Below are positions 1,132 through 18,287 of a stretch of 29,854 bases of DNA, piece after piece; within the stretch, counting starts at the first letter, position 1; the number at the start of each line of letters is the position of its first letter. Location: the NCBI GenBank assembly GCA_036262195.1, contig DATAJI010000151.1, positions 1 to 29,854 on the forward strand, given 5' to 3'. Under the pieces are notes generated by a model. It saw only the letters and a list, made by a program, of their open reading frames with translations. It had not been told where the DNA came from and searched no databases. The position numbers and the translations under genes are program-made. The DNA is from Solirubrobacteraceae bacterium (lineage in GTDB: Bacteria > Actinomycetota > Thermoleophilia > Solirubrobacterales > Solirubrobacteraceae).

Positions 1132-1605
1132 ATGGCGAAAACACTTTGGCTGTTACGCCATGGTGAGGCTGAGGACCCCGGTAGGGGTTCGGATTCCGAT
1201 CGCCGCCTGACCAAGCGTGGTGAGGATCAAGCGCGCGCGGCGGGTCGCGCGCTCTCGCGGCTTGGGGTCACCTTCGAGCTCGTTTTTGCGAGCCCGCGAG
1301 TGCGCGCCCTCGATACGGCGCGGATCGCCTCCGTCGAGCTTCGACTCGAGCCGATCCTGCACGAGCCGCTCGGCGGCGACTTTGGAGCCGATGACGCCGC
1401 TGAGCTTGTCGCGGCCACAAGCGACGGTGGCGCGCTCCTGCTCGTCGGGCACGAGCCAGACATGTCTGGGCTCGTAGCGGCGTTCACCGGAGGCCACGTC
1501 GCGATGAAGAAGGGAGGCCTCGCCGCGATCCGTCTTGCGGGCCGGCGCGGTGAGCTCGCGCTGCTCCTACGTCCGCGCGAGATCGAGTTCCTCGCTGCGG
1601 GTTGA
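1132..1605 (+). CDS. sixA: Phosphohistidine phosphatase SixA family (histidine phosphatase superfamily)
   Basis: LLRHGEAE, DRRLTKRG, SPRVRALDTA and LVGHEPDMS motifs; 157 aa. Confidence 0.85.
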   Translation: MAKTLWLLRHGEAEDPGRGSDSDRRLTKRGEDQARAAGRALSRLGVTFELVFASPRVRALDTARIASVELRLEPILHEPLGGDFGADDAAELVAATSDGGALLLVGHEPDMSGLVAAFTGGHVAMKKGGLAAIRLAGRRGELALLLRPREIEFLAAG

Positions 1606-2409
1606 CAGGTCGCCGAGGGCCGCCAGCTCGCCGGCTGTTGAAAGGCCACCGATGGGCTCCGCAGCGAAGCGGTAGCCGATCCCGAAATGCGTGTGGATGT
1701 AGCGCCAGCCCGGCGAGACCCGCTCGAGCTTCTGGCGCAGCTTCCGCACGAACACATCGACGGAGCGATCGCCGCGGACCATCGAATAGCCCCATAGGCG
1801 CTGATAGACAAACTCGCGCTCAAGCACGCGTCCACCCGAGCCGGCCAGCAGCTCGATCAGCTCGAACTCGCGGCGCGTCAGGTCGATGCTGACGCCGTTC
1901 ACAAACGCCTGGTATTGGTCACGGTGGATCTCGACCTCGCCGGCGAGGATCGGCATGCTGTCCTGGGGCGACTCGAGCCGGCGGCGGCGGCGCACGACCG
2001 CCTCGACGCGGGCGATCAGCTCTTCCGGGTGACACGGCTTCGTCAACCAGTCGTCGGCACCGAGTCGTAGCCCGCGGACGCGCTGCGCGACCGTCGAGGA
2101 GCCGGTGCAGACCACGACTGGCAGCTCGGGTAGCTCACCACAGAGACGCTCGAGCCACTCCCAGCAAGCCGGTCCGAGCACTGCGAGATCGACGATCACC
2201 GCGCTCAGGCGCATCGGCACGATCGTCTGCGGCGAGACTGAGGAGGCGAGCACGCGGCGTTCCCAGCCAATGCGCTCGAGGCGCTTGTCGAGTACCTGCA
2301 GGAAGCCGGAGTCGCGGTCGAGGATCGCGATCCGCAGCGGTGCAGCCGTCGGATCAACGAGGAGTCCCTCCCCCTGAAGCGCCCTGGCGGCGGAAGCGTC
2401 TTCCGTCAT
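1567..2409 (-). CDS. OmpR/PhoB-family response regulator with atypical receiver
   Basis: Receiver (VIVD, CTG, GADDWLTKP) plus winged-helix domain (LTRREFELIELL, RSVDVFVRKLRQKL, IHTHFGIGYRF). Start placed at ATG 2409, downstream of TACAAT. The 3' end overlaps sixA convergently by 39 nt. Confidence 0.88.
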   Translation of the reverse strand: MTEDASAARALQGEGLLVDPTAAPLRIAILDRDSGFLQVLDKRLERIGWERRVLASSVSPQTIVPMRLSAVIVDLAVLGPACWEWLERLCGELPELPVVVCTGSSTVAQRVRGLRLGADDWLTKPCHPEELIARVEAVVRRRRRLESPQDSMPILAGEVEIHRDQYQAFVNGVSIDLTRREFELIELLAGSGGRVLEREFVYQRLWGYSMVRGDRSVDVFVRKLRQKLERVSPGWRYIHTHFGIGYRFAAEPIGGLSTAGELAALGDLSTRSEELDLART

Positions 2410-2418
2410 CTGCGTTCG

Positions 2419-2448
2419 ATTGTAGTGGCGCGGCGGCGCGGCGTGTAA
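2419..2448 (-). promoter_or_regulatory. Primary-sigma-type promoter for the response regulator (TTACAC-N18-TACAAT)
   Basis: TTACAC at 2448-2443 and TACAAT at 2424-2419 on the minus strand; 9 nt from the -10 to the ATG. Confidence 0.5.
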
Positions 2449-2463
2449 GCGTACGCCAGCCGC

Positions 2464-2485
2464 GGTCACAGGATATTCACACGTG
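2464..2485 (+). promoter_or_regulatory. PHO-box-like pair of 11-nt direct repeats
   Basis: GGTCACAGGAT ATTCACACGTG, just upstream of the regulator's -35 and in the opposite orientation to the gene. Resembles the actinobacterial PhoP repeat unit (GTTCACC / GGTCA core). Confidence 0.45.
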
Positions 2486-2514
2486 AGACGTCGCTAGGAG
2501 CGGGATTCCGCCGC

Positions 2515-3225
2515 TCAGGCTTTGGCGGCCGGGAGCTGGGAGGAGTCGGAGAACTCGCGGAACAGACCCGTTACCACGAACGCCGTTTGCTCGCCGATAT
2601 CAACGGCGTTGTCGCCGACTCGCTCCAGTGCTCGCGCGACCATCGTCATGCACATCGCCCATTCCCTGGTGTCGATGTCGTCGCCGACCGCGACCGCGAG
2701 CTGAAAGATGTCGCGCTGGATCTGGTTGACCTCGCTGTCCTGCCGCACCAAGTCCTCCGCAAGCTCGACGTCGCGATCCGCGAATGCCCGCTTTGACTGG
2801 GAGACCTCGGAGCGCACAACCTCTCCCATCCGAGCAAGCTTGGCCAGGATTTCCGGCCGTGTTGGCGGCTCGTTGCCGGCCAACGGCAGCAGCTTGCAGA
2901 TGTTCACGCACTGGTCGCCCATCCTCTCGACGTTGCGGATCACGTGTAGCAGCGCCGCGACGACGCGCAGGTCGCCGGCTACGGGGCTCTGGCGCGCTAG
3001 CAGCGACAGGACACCCTGGTGAATCTCGAGATAACGCCCGTCGACTCGGTCATCGTCGGCGATCACCATCGATGCCAGCTCGACGTCCTGGTGGGCGACG
3101 GCTTCGAGCGAGCGGTCGAGCTGCTCGAGGACGAGGTCGATGCCCTCCAGCGTGCGCGTCTCGAGTTCGCGCAGCTCGTCGTGGAAGTGCGGCCGGGCGG
3201 GGTGTGTATGCGACGTCGCTGACAT
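2515..3225 (-). CDS. phoU: Phosphate signalling complex protein PhoU
   Basis: FHDELREL, VIADDDRVDGRYLEI, PVAGDLR, NVERMGDQCVNI and LERVGDNAVDIGE match the two-repeat PhoU pattern. Confidence 0.95.
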   Translation of the reverse strand: MSATSHTHPARPHFHDELRELETRTLEGIDLVLEQLDRSLEAVAHQDVELASMVIADDDRVDGRYLEIHQGVLSLLARQSPVAGDLRVVAALLHVIRNVERMGDQCVNICKLLPLAGNEPPTRPEILAKLARMGEVVRSEVSQSKRAFADRDVELAEDLVRQDSEVNQIQRDIFQLAVAVGDDIDTREWAMCMTMVARALERVGDNAVDIGEQTAFVVTGLFREFSDSSQLPAAKA

Positions 3226-3262
3226 TTGGCTCGCTTCGCTTGCCTACGGGACCGAGGGGAGG

Positions 3263-3688
3263 CTACGCCGTTGCCGCGCCGTCCGCGTCTGGCGGCCTCG
3301 TCGTATCGTCGCCAGTCTCGGGCCTCGGCGAGGTGCCGGTGTCAATTTCTCGTGAAAGCTGTGCCTGGAAGCGGTAGCCGAAGCCGGGGTGGGTGTGGAT
3401 GAAGCGGCGGCCCGGAGCGGCTGCCTCCAGCTTTGCGCGCAGCTTGCTCACGTACACGTCGACCGAGCGGTCGCCGGGGCGAAGCTCCCGACCCCAGACG
3501 GTGCGGCACAGCTCGTCACGGCGCACGATCCCGCCGGCGCGGTCGACCATCGCCACGAGCAGCTGGAACTCGCGCATCGAAAGCGTGAGCGCTTCTCCGC
3601 CTGCGAGCACGAGCCCCTCGGATGTTCTGATCTCGAGATCGTCGATGCGGATCGTTCGCGGCTCGTCCCGATGCGCTTGAGCGACCAT
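3263..3688 (-). CDS. Stand-alone OmpR-type winged-helix DNA-binding protein (no receiver domain)
   Basis: LSMREFQLLVAM, RSVDVYVSKLRAKL and IHTHPGFGYRF. Start placed at ATG 3688 (141 aa); the longer ORF extension runs through the promoter/repeat region and has no receiver motifs. Confidence 0.85.
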   Translation of the reverse strand: MVAQAHRDEPRTIRIDDLEIRTSEGLVLAGGEALTLSMREFQLLVAMVDRAGGIVRRDELCRTVWGRELRPGDRSVDVYVSKLRAKLEAAAPGRRFIHTHPGFGYRFQAQLSREIDTGTSPRPETGDDTTRPPDADGAATA

Positions 3689-3720
3689 CTCCCTGGGCAG
3701 CCTCCCGCCCAGCGCGCAGG

Positions 3721-3764
3721 ATCGGGTTAACATGCGGTGACGTAGCGGTGAACAACTCGTGAAA
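3721..3764 (-). promoter_or_regulatory. Array of four 11-nt PHO-box-like direct repeats
   Basis: The minus strand reads TTTCACGAGTT GTTCACCGCTA CGTCACCGCAT GTTAACCCGAT with exact 11-nt periodicity, between the divergent wHTH-phoU and DUF47 genes. Unit 2 contains GTTCACC, the Streptomyces PhoP core. Confidence 0.7.
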
Positions 3765-3804
3765 CAAGGCCAACGCAGTGCGCGGCTCTCTACGCTGAGG
3801 TTCA

Positions 3805-4437
3805 ATGGCGCTGCTGCGTAGGTCGATAGACGAACCGCTGCTCGCGCTCCTCGAGGAGTCCGGACGCAACGTTCAGCGAACGGCGCTGCTGCTGCGCGAC
3901 ATGCTGGCCGACTACCCGGAGCGGGCGACCCTCGCTCAAGATCTCCGGCTCTGCGAGCAGGAGGGCGACCGGATCACGCACGACCTGATTCACAGGCTGA
4001 ACAGCAACGGTCGGGTGCGCGCGCCGTTCGACGCGGGCGACGGCTACCGCCTGGCGACGGCGCTTGACGACATCGTCGACGAAGCCGAGCAGGTGGCAGA
4101 CACGCTCGGCCTGTACGCGGTGGAGGCCACGATGGAGGCGGCTGTCGATCTCGCCGACGTGCTCGTCGGCGCGTGCGAGCAGGTCGCGCACGCGCTTCGC
4201 TGCTTGCGCATGGGTAGCGGGCTGGCACCGCACCTCGTCGAGATCCATCGGCTCGAGAACGAAGGCGATCGCATTCGCCGCGACGCCGTCGCATCGCTGT
4301 TCGTTGGTGGTACGGACCCAATGGTCGTGATCCGCTGGCGCGACATCTTCGAGTCACTTGAGGCCGCTGTAGACGCTTGCGAGACCGTCGCGCACATGCT
4401 CGAAGGCATCGCGCTGCGCGACCGCCGTCGCCGCTGA
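3805..4437 (+). CDS. DUF47-family PhoU-like phosphate transport regulator
   Basis: CEQEGDRITHDLIHRLN, ALDDIVD, IHRLENEGD and IRWRDIFESLEAAVDACE follow the DUF47/YkaA pattern. TACGCT -10 at 3791-3796. Confidence 0.9.
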   Translation: MALLRRSIDEPLLALLEESGRNVQRTALLLRDMLADYPERATLAQDLRLCEQEGDRITHDLIHRLNSNGRVRAPFDAGDGYRLATALDDIVDEAEQVADTLGLYAVEATMEAAVDLADVLVGACEQVAHALRCLRMGSGLAPHLVEIHRLENEGDRIRRDAVASLFVGGTDPMVVIRWRDIFESLEAAVDACETVAHMLEGIALRDRRRR

Positions 4438-7083
4438 TCAGGCCCGCTTCTTGCGGGTCTGTTTGCTCGCGAGCGACTTGCTGCTCAGCGCTGTCGTCGA
4501 GATGACCGTCGGAACACGCGGCTCGGGGATCGAGAGGAGACGGGCGTCGAGCTGCACCCAGCGCTTCGGGCTGAGTCCGAAGTGACCAGCGACGCTGGCG
4601 GTGCTGGCGAGCGCAAGCTGAGCCGGCTCCGGGGTGAAGCTGACGACGATCTGGCCTGCATCGTTCGGGTCGGCGACGCTGCTCGCCGCGCCTTGGATCG
4701 CCTCGGGGCCGGCGATCCGCGACGGCGCGTTGTCACCGGTCAGCATCAGCAGCGCCTTGATCGTCGAGTCAGTGGGCGTGCCCGTGCCAGCTCCCGCCCC
4801 GACGGCGACCGAGTTGACGGCGGTGATCGTGATGCTGTCGGCGTTCGTCGCTGACGGAGCTCCACCGGTGGCGCACTGCGCGCCGCCGATCGTCGGGTCG
4901 AGTCCGTTATCGACAAGGAACTCGACGCTTGCGAGTACGCGACGGTCGACGTCTCCCGCCGCGATTGCGTCTCGCTCGCAGAGCGACATCTTCAAATGCA
5001 CGTTCTCGAGCACGACGCGTTCGAGGTCGATCTGGCTCATCAGGCCTGCCTCGCCGGCGTCGTTGCTCTGCAGGCCGGCTCCGTAGAGCGGCTCGCTCAG
5101 AGGCTTGCGGTGCAGTTCAACCGTCGCGAGCTGAGTCCAAGCGTCGAGGAACGGTCGTGGGTCGATCCCCGCCCGACCGGTGCCCGCCGGACGAAGCTCG
5201 AAGGTCAGATGCGGCTCACGACCGGAGCCGCTTGCCCGGAGGTAGCCGAGGATCGTGCCGGCGAGGACGCGCGACCCGACGCGTAGCGCGCGGGGCTTGA
5301 GCTGGTCGCGCGGCAAGCCCAGGGCGCTCGTGTAGTAGCGATCGACGATCTTGTGCGCTTGCGAGGAGCGCAGCGCCTTTTCGGCTGCCCGGTGGCTCGA
5401 GAGCGGTGGACCGCCGAAGATCGTGACGTCGTCAGTGAGACCTGGGCGGAAGTCGAAGGCAGCGAAGGGCGACGCCGTATCGGCGGTGGCCGACGCCTCG
5501 CTCGTCTCGCTTGGTGTCGCGAGCGCCTGTGCCTCCGCCTCTGCGGCTACGACGCCCGCGATGCCGTCCGACGTCTGCGCGCCGGCGCTTGCCGGCGCAG
5601 TCGGAGCCGGTCCGCTCGCGAGTTGACTGGGGGTCGCCAGCGAGGACGTGGCCGCCGTGTCCATCGGCTTCGGGACTAGGTGATAGGCGGCGACCGAGCC
5701 GAGGTTGCCATAGGTGTAGGCATTGCCGAACGCGTCCCGCACACGGACATAGGTGCCGAGGCGACGGCTGTGCCCGATCGCGACGACCGTCGCGTCTTGT
5801 ACTGCAACAGCAGCGGCGTGCGCTTTGGCGAAGATGTCTACGGCCTGCGAGCCCGCGCCCTCGATGGCGGTCTTCGCCGCCGCGCCGACCGCAGCTGGTG
5901 GCGGGGCCTGGCCCTTGCTCGCCGCAACCGCGTTGACCGCGTGCGGAGCGTCGCTTGAGGACGCGGCACGTTTGTAGCTCGGGTGGTAGCGAAGCTCGAT
6001 CGGGAAAAGGCCCTCGGAGAGCTGGCTGACCGAGTTGACGAGCGTCGCCGGCACGCCGCTCAACAGCTCGGCGCGTAGGAGCACCGACTCGACGTAGGAC
6101 GTCGAATGGTTGTAGGCAAAGATCGCCGCCGGCAGATTCGTCGACGCGCCGGCAGCGCTGAGATAACGGGCCGCCGAGAAGATCGCGTCCGCGGCGTTGT
6201 ACGGGTCCGCCACTCCCGCCCCGGTCGCGTCTAGGCCATAGCTCTGCCACGTGCTGGGAAGGAATTGCATCCATCCAATCGCGCCTGCTGAGGAGACGTT
6301 GAGATCGCTGCCGAAGTTGGTCTCGACCTGGTTGATCGCGGCTAGAACCTCCCAGGGCACGTCGTAGGCGGCTCCGGCCGACTGATAGATCGGCAGGAGG
6401 AACGACGGTACGTCGAAGTGCGCGATGTACCACTCCGGCACGTCGGCTCCGATTGCGGCGGTGACCAGGGGGTCGAACACCGAGCCGGGTAGCACGCCCG
6501 CGAGGGGATTCCTATCCGAGAAAAGGCTCGGCGCCGGCGCGAGCGCGCCGCCGGCAAGGCTGACGTTTGTGCCACCGCTCCCTGTGGAGTTGAGACGGTC
6601 GTTCCCGCTCTCGGGTTGGGTCGTTATCGAGGTCACCACCGGCTCCCCGCCGCTGCCCGTTGCGCCGGTCGGCCCGCTCGAGCCACTCGGCCCGCTCGTG
6701 CCGGTAGGACCGACCGCGCTAGGGGGGGTAGGCGCGGTCGGCGCCGTTGGCGACGTCGATCCACTCGAGGACGTCGAGCCGGTGCTGCCGCTGGCGCCGC
6801 TCGTGCCCGTGCTGCCGCTCGTGCCCGTGCTGCCGCTGGCACCGCTTGCCCCGCTGGCGCCCGTCGTTCCGCTGGCGCCGCTCGCGCCGCTTGTTCCCGT
6901 GGCGCCGCTGGCGCCCGTGCTGCCGCTCGCAGAAGTGCCGCCGGTGGCGCCGCTGCTGCCGGTGGCGCCGGTGCCCGAATCGTCAGCGGCACCGGCGAAC
7001 CCAAGCTGCGGGCCGGCACCGATGGCACTCAGGACCAACACTGCAAGTGCCGTTTGCGGCACTCGGGAGATCTGCATGGCCAC
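4438..7083 (-). CDS. Secreted multidomain lytic transglycosylase (SLT-like domain, Gly-X-X stalk, degenerate M23-like domain)
   Basis: N-terminal signal-like segment; VPWEVLAAINQVETNFG (catalytic Glu), SSAGAIGWMQFLPSTW and DAIFSAARYL; M23-like strands LGTYVRV..YTYGNL and PHLTFE..IDPRPFL. Start is GTG 7083 or ATG 7077. Confidence 0.8.
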   Translation of the reverse strand: MAMQISRVPQTALAVLVLSAIGAGPQLGFAGAADDSGTGATGSSGATGGTSASGSTGASGATGTSGASGASGTTGASGASGASGSTGTSGSTGTSGASGSTGSTSSSGSTSPTAPTAPTPPSAVGPTGTSGPSGSSGPTGATGSGGEPVVTSITTQPESGNDRLNSTGSGGTNVSLAGGALAPAPSLFSDRNPLAGVLPGSVFDPLVTAAIGADVPEWYIAHFDVPSFLLPIYQSAGAAYDVPWEVLAAINQVETNFGSDLNVSSAGAIGWMQFLPSTWQSYGLDATGAGVADPYNAADAIFSAARYLSAAGASTNLPAAIFAYNHSTSYVESVLLRAELLSGVPATLVNSVSQLSEGLFPIELRYHPSYKRAASSSDAPHAVNAVAASKGQAPPPAAVGAAAKTAIEGAGSQAVDIFAKAHAAAVAVQDATVVAIGHSRRLGTYVRVRDAFGNAYTYGNLGSVAAYHLVPKPMDTAATSSLATPSQLASGPAPTAPASAGAQTSDGIAGVVAAEAEAQALATPSETSEASATADTASPFAAFDFRPGLTDDVTIFGGPPLSSHRAAEKALRSSQAHKIVDRYYTSALGLPRDQLKPRALRVGSRVLAGTILGYLRASGSGREPHLTFELRPAGTGRAGIDPRPFLDAWTQLATVELHRKPLSEPLYGAGLQSNDAGEAGLMSQIDLERVVLENVHLKMSLCERDAIAAGDVDRRVLASVEFLVDNGLDPTIGGAQCATGGAPSATNADSITITAVNSVAVGAGAGTGTPTDSTIKALLMLTGDNAPSRIAGPEAIQGAASSVADPNDAGQIVVSFTPEPAQLALASTASVAGHFGLSPKRWVQLDARLLSIPEPRVPTVISTTALSSKSLASKQTRKKRA
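6652..6975 (-). repeat. Imperfect 9-nt periodic coding repeats (Gly-X-X, X = Ala/Ser/Thr)
   Basis: Encodes GATGSSGATGGTSASGSTGASGATGTSGASGASGTTGASGASGASGSTGTSGSTGTSGASGSTGS, then GPTGTSGPSGSSGPTGATGSG. An exact 18-nt tandem duplication lies at 6799-6834. Confidence 0.85.
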
Positions 7084-10208: not shown

Positions 10209-10237
10209 ATGGTCATGATTCGCCTGCAAACCTCAGC

Positions 10238-10259
10238 TTTCTGTGACCAGACGGTGAAA
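10238..10259 (-). promoter_or_regulatory. PHO-box-like pair of 11-nt direct repeats upstream of the PHP-GT4 gene
   Basis: Minus strand TTTCACCGTCT GGTCACAGAAA, followed in register by GCTGAGGTTTG; same orientation as the gene, 30 nt upstream of the ATG. Confidence 0.55.
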
Positions 10260-17301: not shown

Positions 17302-18287
17302 GCCGCGCCGCTGACGCGCGCCGAGACGGCTTCGAGGAGCTCGCTGGCGAGCGCGCCGCCGTCGGCGGGGTTCATCGGTGTGGCGCTGATCTTGACCACG
17401 ACGTTCGGACCGTCGAGCTCCTCGAGCGTTATCGACGGTCGTCTGCGGAGTGCCACGGTTAGCCGATCCTCGAGCAACTGCTGCACCTCGAGGGGCGTGG
17501 TACCCGGGCGTAGCCGTGCCCGCAGGCTTACGGCGGTCGGCTCGCGCAACGGCATCACAGCCACGTTCAGCACCACGCTGTTGGGTATCAGTAAGTGGTC
17601 CTCACCCGTTGTGAAAGTCGTGTAGAGCAGGCCCAGGGAGAGGGCGGTGCCTTCGATCTGCCCCGCCAGAGCGCCGCCCTGCAGCCTTACGCGCTCGCCA
17701 ACGCGGAACGGACGCGCGCTCAGGAGCACGAGGCCGGCGATCAGGTTTCCGAGCGTTTGTTGCGCCGCGAGGCCGAAGACAACGGCCGTGAAGGAGGCGC
17801 CGATGGCGATTGTCGTCGTGTCAATGCCGGCAAAGCGCAGCGCGATGATCACCGCTCCAAGCAGCGTCGCGAGCCGTACGAGGAACCCGATCGTGCCTGC
17901 GTTCGCCGGATCGACATGCTTGCCAAGCGTCGGTGACAGGACGCGGCCGACCTCCCGTGCGATCGCCCAGCCGAGGATCACGAGCAGGATTACGGTCACG
18001 ACCTGAGCCGTGGTCGTCGCGGTTGTCGATCGCAGGCACAGGGACCCGAGGCACCCGGGCGGACGCCGAGAATGGATCCCGAGCAGGGCCCCGCGATGGT
18101 CGTAGACCACGATTACGCCGACGAAGAGCGCCGCCAATCCGAGCATCTCGGCGCGCGCCCGACGGAGCGCCCCGCCGGTGAGTTCAGGTACTGCTTCGCG
18201 CCAGCTCTCGATCCGTCCTGGGAGCCCGCTCCAGCGGTCGGGACGATCTGGCGGTGACGGTGGTGGTGAGTTCGATTCGGGGCTCAT
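17286..18287 (-). CDS. mscS: Small-conductance mechanosensitive channel (MscS family)
   Basis: TM helices, then FGLAAQQTLGNLIAGLVLLSARPFRVGERV and LIPNS. Confidence 0.9.
   Translation of the reverse strand: MSPESNSPPPSPPDRPDRWSGLPGRIESWREAVPELTGGALRRARAEMLGLAALFVGVIVVYDHRGALLGIHSRRPPGCLGSLCLRSTTATTTAQVVTVILLVILGWAIAREVGRVLSPTLGKHVDPANAGTIGFLVRLATLLGAVIIALRFAGIDTTTIAIGASFTAVVFGLAAQQTLGNLIAGLVLLSARPFRVGERVRLQGGALAGQIEGTALSLGLLYTTFTTGEDHLLIPNSVVLNVAVMPLREPTAVSLRARLRPGTTPLEVQQLLEDRLTVALRRRPSITLEELDGPNVVVKISATPMNPADGGALASELLEAVSARVSGAAQPTT

Follow-up and report, generated by a model that had tools for sequence, protein, structure and literature searches.

PhoB, PhoP (of Streptomyces and Bacillus) and RegX3 (of mycobacteria) are OmpR-family regulators of the Pho response. 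The receiver of PhoB reportedly silences the output domain, and the alpha2–alpha3 loop contacts sigma-70 in PhoB. OmpR-type regulators that act independently of phosphotransfer are also known, namely ChxR, HP1043, JadR1 and GlnR, in which a degenerate receiver serves as a dimerisation or ligand module. PspF and HrpR/HrpS are receiver-less sigma-54 AAA+ activators with an intrinsically active output that is controlled in trans; PspF, for instance, is held in check by PspA. Truncated paralogues of transcription factors are often antagonists. TrlR/TraS, for example, counteracts TraR, of which it is a truncated paralogue; it has kept the dimerisation/ligand domain while missing the DNA-binding domain.

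The protein considered here, called W in what follows, is likewise of OmpR type and belongs to a pst–phoU locus. It is encoded in a stretch of 29,854 nucleotides from a Solirubrobacteraceae bacterium (assembly GCA_036262195.1, contig DATAJI010000151.1), the whole of which is referred to as the window. Whereas the PhoB and PhoP proteins that consist of a DNA-binding domain only were made in the laboratory, W is natural, separately encoded and conserved, and coexists with a full-length regulator. It resembles the ChxR-type regulators in its predicted independence of phosphorylation, but has no receiver-like sequence at all, and is a paralogue that is probably under the control of the very regulator from which it was copied. 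With PspF and HrpR/HrpS, it shares a stand-alone output domain whose control has moved to expression or to a partner, although the protein family is different. ToxR/CadC and the SARPs also carry an OmpR-type winged helix without a receiver, and the CadC domain is among the structural matches of W. W, however, has neither a transmembrane/periplasmic part nor a BTAD, as PF00486 is its only Pfam domain. Like TrlR/TraS, it is a natural truncated paralogue, but the domain that was kept is the reverse one, and its action within the same regulon is predicted. Full-text literature searches turned up no published account of a Pho-regulator paralogue that lacks a receiver and is encoded at a pst operon, in keeping with the impression of novelty gained from the sequence alone, and nothing on Pho regulation in Thermoleophilia.

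A stand-alone effector domain and its full-length paralogue

The W open reading frame runs from an ATG at 3686–3688 to a TAG at 3263–3265 (Table 1). The Shine-Dalgarno-like element upstream of it recurs at equal spacing in a second locus of the same genus (L012). A longer reading of 180 aa, from a TTG at 3805, adds no further domain and overlaps the box region; the ATG at 3688 was therefore kept.

Table 1. Features of the W locus and Pho boxes elsewhere in the assembly. Positions refer to the window unless a contig is given; RR is the neighbouring response regulator.
Feature	Position	Strand	Remarks
RR, orphan OmpR-family response regulator	1567..2409	-	280 aa from ATG 2409; PF00072 + PF00486
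Two-unit box (GTCACAGGATA TTCACACGTGA)	2465..2486	+	phoU–RR intergenic region, points away from RR; 17.1 in genome-wide two-unit scan
phoU	2515..3225	-	236 aa; PF01895, 129.9 bits; 37 nt downstream of W
W gene (receiver-less OmpR/PhoB-type winged-helix protein)	3263..3688	-	141 aa; from ORF and translation
W effector domain	residues 12-111		residues 112-141 are a low-confidence tail, probably disordered
Shine-Dalgarno-like GGGAGG	3701..3706	-	12 nt 5' of W ATG; sequence reading
Four-unit Pho box (W promoter box), 11-nt direct repeats TTCAC/TTCAC/GTCAC/TTAAC	3720..3763	-	points to W; in the 116-bp region shared with DUF47; 38.8 bits
DUF47 / PhoU_div gene	3805..4437	+	PF01865, 71.9 bits; divergent from W, shares the box-containing intergenic region
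5' end of ppk1		-	other window gene
CHAD genes		-	other window genes
sixA		+	other window gene
Four-unit box upstream of pstS	C237:1400-1443		35.0 bits
Three- to four-unit box upstream of TAT-signal phosphoesterase			24.1 bits

Pfam profile PF00486 (Trans_reg_C) matches W with 77.5 bits, against a cutoff of 26.2, over residues 31–107 and along the entire profile (positions 1–77 of 77). It is the sole match in the Pfam scan, from which PF00072 (Response_reg) is absent. The effector domain is preceded by only about 10 residues, and since no more than 116 bp separate the W start from that of the divergent DUF47 gene (3805), no receiver is hidden upstream. In an AF2 model built with 30 orthologues, pLDDT exceeds 90 at residues 11–110 and confidence is low over the last 30 residues. 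The model places strands at residues 12–15, 18–21, 26–29 and 32–34, helices at 38–49, 57–65 and 75–90, and two further strands at 94–100 and 104–111. As modelled, W is thus a complete OmpR/PhoB effector domain, in which a sheet of four strands is followed by three helices and a hairpin wing. Its last 30 residues form a hydrophilic tail that has no structure in the model and whose length is not conserved.

Foldseek matched the model to PrrA, RstA (DNA-bound), SaeR, YycF, the PhoB effector domain and Mycobacterium tuberculosis PhoP, all with a probability of 1.00, and TM values on target were about 0.85–0.89 for the PrrA, RstA, YycF, PhoB and PhoP domains. The fold is the same as that of the Escherichia coli PhoB effector on pho-box DNA (1gxp; TM 0.87, rmsd 2.2 Å), while the wing has His-Thr-His where PhoB has Thr-Val-Arg, in an alignment by eye. 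The family profile, built from an alignment of 30 orthologues (A1), retrieves the VicR, YycF and PhoB effector chains with E values of 1e-22 to 1e-20 over positions 8–108. Profile and fold thus both place W in the OmpR/PhoB effector-domain family, but as the receiver with its phospho-acceptor aspartate is missing, W does not qualify as a response regulator.

The neighbouring regulator, RR, carries the receiver that W lacks. BLASTP aligns the two at 38% identity over 124 aa (E 2e-24), and the C-terminal block of 36 residues singled out by the sequence-only reading is present in W, with 26 of the 36 identical to RR. Within the assembly (2.17 Mb, 86% complete), RR is the best paralogue of W (E 2e-22), the next OmpR-type regulator following at 1e-13. 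A quick IQ-TREE phylogeny on about 100 columns unites the W and RR domains in one clade (99% SH-aLRT) against nine other OmpR-type domains of the genome, with W (90%) and RR (84%) on opposite sides of one branch; W evolves faster than the RR domain. The reading of W as a receiver-less paralogue of its neighbour's DNA-binding domain, made from the letters alone, is therefore upheld by pairwise comparison, genome-wide search and tree, just as ORF analysis, Pfam and BLASTP agree with its description as a receiver-less frame between a repeat array upstream and phoU downstream.

The match had been said to include the recognition helix, and the helix and wing are indeed nearly identical in the two proteins. 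A recognition helix of the form DRSVDV(Y/F)VxKLRxKL and a wing of the form IHTHxGxGYRF are common to W and RR and occur in none of the other OmpR paralogues of the genome. Two helix positions differ. Position 82 is S, H, R, G or A in W and an invariant Arg in RR, and Tyr79, invariant in W, is Phe in RR. These substitutions, together with the faster evolution of W, would be expected if its specificity had diverged, that is, if it bound another motif or acted elsewhere, for example by docking in trans on the RR receiver and taking the place of RR's own DNA-binding domain, the Pho box controlling its expression only. We consider this improbable, as W and RR agree at every other position of the recognition helix and wing; these positions do not vary across three families of the order, and the TTCAC core of the box is unchanged there too. 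Outside the DNA-reading elements, the alpha2–alpha3 loop reads WGxxLRxGDRS in W and an invariant WGYAMAHGDRS in RR.

Of 151 genomes of the order Solirubrobacterales, 141 have an orthologue of RR, at 51–86% identity. The receiver has conserved Asp, Thr and Lys residues, and LDRDSG replaces the usual acidic pair. No kinase gene adjoins RR at the locus in any family, and the genome has further OmpR-type regulators that are paired with kinases. In the window's family (f1), the convergent neighbour of RR is sixA, a gene of the phosphohistidine-phosphatase type. NCBIfam equivalog models do not name either protein. W scores 51.4, 59.9 and 43.5 bits with TIGR02154, NF053854 and NF007546 (cut-offs 296, 270 and 471), values that a domain-only protein cannot raise to the PhoB/PhoP cut-offs. 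RR reaches 101.7 bits with the PhoB equivalog (cut-off 296.2), so that both, unlike PhoB, fall below it. Nor could the true PhoP be picked out in this way, every OmpR-type regulator of the genome falling short of all the equivalog cut-offs.

The repeat array and the layout of the locus

The four-unit array upstream of W, first noted as a set of direct repeats, proved to be a conserved element. It takes the form TTCAC-N6-TTCAC-N6-(G/T/A)TCAC-N6-(G/A/T)TAAC and faces W at 29 of the 30 W loci examined. A position weight matrix built without the window's own locus and compared with shuffled controls found only three sites above every shuffle in the 2.17-Mb assembly: those upstream of W, pstS and a phosphoesterase with a TAT signal. 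The last of these genes (C401:10428-12511) encodes a protein of about 650 aa, typed from its sequence as of the phospholipase C/acid phosphatase type, with a twin-arginine-like signal; it is likely to be a Pho-regulon phosphatase. Since in this genome only W, pstS and the secreted phosphoesterase have the same array, it is recognised as the Pho box of the clade, and by this promoter box, common to core Pho genes, W would itself be a member of the Pho regulon. The clade's box resembles the direct repeat units of Streptomyces, G(G/T)TCAYYYR(G/C)G, in consisting of head-to-tail 11-nt repeats with a similar TTCAC core (PMC2275107).

Three units of the W box match the TTCAC consensus, while the third unit of pstS boxes is degenerate, a difference that would suit an earlier or stronger induction of W. 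Shorter elements are less distinctive. A genome-wide scan for two-unit boxes gave 46 matches against 27–34 in shuffled sequence, such that only the top matches are usable. The two-unit box between phoU and RR has an equivalent about 55–60 nt 5' of the RR start in the eight f1 loci that were parsable. Two further matches in the window, at 10237–10258 (-), upstream of a PHP-glycosyltransferase gene, and at 17605–17626 (-), score 15.2 and 14.5 bits, near the shuffled background. No such boxes were found at the genome's other, kinase-paired OmpR regulators.

Most relatives have a second four-unit box, located between W and pstS (L074:7297-7340, L076:3385-3428, L075:3918-3961 and others). Within f1, this box overlaps the 3' end of W. 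There, two box units, TCACATCCTTTTCACACG, translate in frame to the conserved W tail SHPFHT, and unit 4 (GTAAC) contains the stop codon TAA. As a protein motif, SHPFHT was accordingly set aside, being largely explained by the DNA as an in-frame reading of the pstS Pho box; the 3' end of W in relatives appears to be coding sequence shaped by an operator. The window's W has neither the pstS box at its 3' end nor SHPFHT, and its tail is different and longer. A handful of singleton calls (P0129, P0131, P0132, P0135 and P0137) join Trans_reg_C to the PstS-type domain PF12849, and probably result from read-through or a frameshift at the W stop inside the pstS box.

Across families, W typically lies directly 5' of pstS-pstC-pstA-pstB-phoU and next to RR, which is taken to be its ancestral position. 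In f1, the DUF47 gene is divergent from a W-pstSCAB-phoU-RR series, with sixA convergent; the divergent W/DUF47 arrangement recurs in many loci of this family. In f3, RR is divergent from W-pstSCAB-phoU-DUF47, and in genus g2 and part of f4, RR is followed by W and then by pstSCAB, all in the same direction. One genome (G116) has a group II intron reverse transcriptase/maturase gene (RVT_1 + GIIM; L071:8778-10154, +) between W and the DUF47 gene.

The window departs from the common layout. A genome of the same genus (G028) has pstSCAB between W and phoU, while in the window and in G128, these genes are absent from that position, and the comparison indicates that both genomes lost pstSCAB from the W locus. 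The pstS gene of the window's genome lies on another contig (C237, positions 1–2662), with a divergent pstC(-like) gene and pstA probably next after pstC. Conservation of a regulator–phoU–winged-helix triplet, which the sequence-only reading had put forward as a check, does not hold beyond the window and G128. G028 and other genera have pstSCAB in between, and because G028 keeps these genes, the triplet appears to be a recent local derivative. No terminator-like site was found between W and phoU, which are probably co-transcribed. A sigma-70 promoter scan of positions 1400–4600 found nothing.

Across families, DUF47 and phoU invariably belong to the RR/W/pst locus. In the window, W is flanked by both, the DUF47 gene being divergent with the box region in common, and the locus has no kinase gene. 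It is therefore conceivable that the PhoU and/or DUF47 protein binds W and gates its access to Pho boxes independently of a kinase, much as the receiver-less PspF has its output set by its partner PspA. In that case, proteins of the PhoU family could act on transcription with no need of PhoR. Such regulation in trans is nonetheless unlikely. None of the longer relatives of W contains PF01865 or PF01895, the linkage of DUF47 and phoU to the locus is not specific to W, since genomes without W show it too, and RR keeps its phospho-acceptor residues.

Distribution, selection and origin

Thousands of short relatives of W (115–180 aa, with PF00486 as the sole domain) are present in the protein database, the best-named coming from Solirubrobacteraceae. 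The few longer relatives are singletons, and none of them has a receiver. The single W protein, used as a query against 151 genomes of the order, matched 85 of them at E ≤1e-25, a count that includes RR-domain matches. With profile A1, the best E values over 401 genomes of the order are bimodal, W scoring about 1e-42 or better and RR domains 1e-36 to 1e-41, and W is present in roughly half of these genomes. By family, W was found in about 98 of 122 genomes of f1, 73 of 122 of f3 and 45 of 122 of f4, and in none of f2, f5 and f6; these counts are approximate, having been read from a table by eye. The tallies over 151 genomes (W and RR) and 401 genomes include the unpublished G036, G057, G464, G514 and G549, on which no specific locus or claim rests. 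Beyond the order, no short W gene was detected among 300 genomes spread over the phylum, and the class's other orders gave matches of RR length only.

W-like genes may be more widespread than counted, since a more divergent receiver-less winged-helix gene in genome G080 (L108:6827-7228, +) scores below an RR domain with the W profile. This gene lies inverted between RR and pstS, convergent with the former and divergent from the latter across the box.

Alignment A1 has 22 invariant columns, including the core of the recognition helix and the wing. The closest pair of W genes has a dN/dS ratio of 0.12, and the median ratio is 0.41; these values are of limited use, since dS is compressed by extreme GC3. 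With these columns and a ratio below one, W appears to be under purifying selection. An intact receiver in orthologues, which the sequence-only reading had named as the finding that would make W a truncation remnant, is absent, as the orthologues are all short and the longer relatives have none. The short length of W is the one feature that would suit a wrongly called gene or a truncated response regulator that has lost its function, and there is next to no chance of either. The thousands of similar short proteins, the occurrence in about half of 401 genomes, the invariant residues and dN/dS, the gene's own conserved promoter box and the lack of any relative with a receiver all stand against it, and these conservation data have already refuted it.

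Genomes that lack W show what the locus looks like without it. In f4 genomes of this kind, RR is followed by a four-unit box and pstSCAB-phoU, while in those of f2 and f5, RR and then DUF47 are read in one direction from the box and pstS in the other. A genome of another order of the class has the same kind of boxes at pstS. Because the box is thus found at pstS in genomes without W and in another order, box and RR would predate W, and RR is, from its context, likely to be the primary Pho-box binder. Five loci (L082, L083, L085, L086 and L107) have the layout RR, box, W, box, pstS. This fits an origin of W by partial tandem duplication of a DNA-binding domain together with its box: the 3' half of the RR gene and the adjacent Pho box would have been duplicated in tandem, giving RR–box–W–box–pstSCAB-phoU.

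Possible effects of W at the Pho boxes

Taken with its conservation, the context of W tentatively suggests a functional, lineage-specific, receiver-less protein of OmpR/PhoB type that joins phosphorylated RR (RR~P) on the boxes and reinforces activation in a coherent feed-forward loop. As the W promoter has the best four-unit box of the genome, RR~P should switch W on through this box when phosphate is limiting. Since the recognition helix and wing have been kept and the inhibitory receiver is missing, W should then bind the same TTCAC 11-nt repeats without phosphorylation. On multi-unit boxes, W and RR~P would sit head to tail, leading to higher occupancy, and the reinforced occupancy would activate the W promoter itself, pst and other Pho genes.

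A precedent comes from Streptomyces, in which the isolated DNA-binding domain of PhoP binds PHO boxes better than full PhoP does, ‘constitutively’, and binds cooperatively along multi-unit operators (PMC2275107). Reinforcement is preferred because isolated domains are active in model systems, because the W promoter box is the best one and because the alpha2–alpha3 loop is conserved within W. Several points weigh against it. A self-activator that is independent of phosphorylation risks a self-sustaining loop with no off switch. Its loop is unlike that of RR, so that W may not contact RNA polymerase as RR does, and W evolves faster than the RR domain. Equally long four-unit boxes exist in W-less genomes, which implies that W is not needed to fill them. 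Finally, binding by RR is itself deduced from context in a genome that has other kinase-paired OmpR-type regulators.

Some of the same observations would suit an opposite sign. W, induced by RR~P, might fill boxes unproductively or break up RR~P dimers on the DNA, and so cap the Pho response independently of the state of the kinase or phosphatase. Its specificity for boxes is presumably the same as that of RR, while its putative transactivation loop differs from RR's invariant one. W is in an operon with the classical negative arm, Pst–PhoU, and is here probably co-transcribed with phoU. Negative feedback would avoid the runaway loop of a signal-independent activator, and antagonism is a common fate of truncated transcription-factor paralogues in general. 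On the other side, isolated PhoB and PhoP domains have proved active, not inert, where they have been studied, the strength of the W promoter box means that an antagonist would come first and blunt induction, and conservation of the loop within the W family suggests that a contact has been retained. A role as competitor is possible, and nearly as likely as reinforcement.

Whichever sign applies, W probably gives phosphate control a further level that does not depend on phosphorylation and of which no published account was found. Removal of the receiver from PhoB or PhoP in the laboratory frees the DNA-binding domain from phosphorylation, and Solirubrobacterales have made such a construct naturally. 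It has long been kept, apparently placed under the regulator from which it was copied, at the head of the phosphate-uptake operon. W would thus exemplify a regulatory layer arising from partial gene duplication of a domain and its operator, and lends itself, as a natural system, to the question of what a two-component circuit acquires with a copy that is independent of the signal, be it memory, amplification or damping. The analysis also provides a defined Pho box and core regulon for the Solirubrobacterales, which are abundant in soil and barely studied, and bears on PhoU-type signalling in a locus without a sensor kinase gene.
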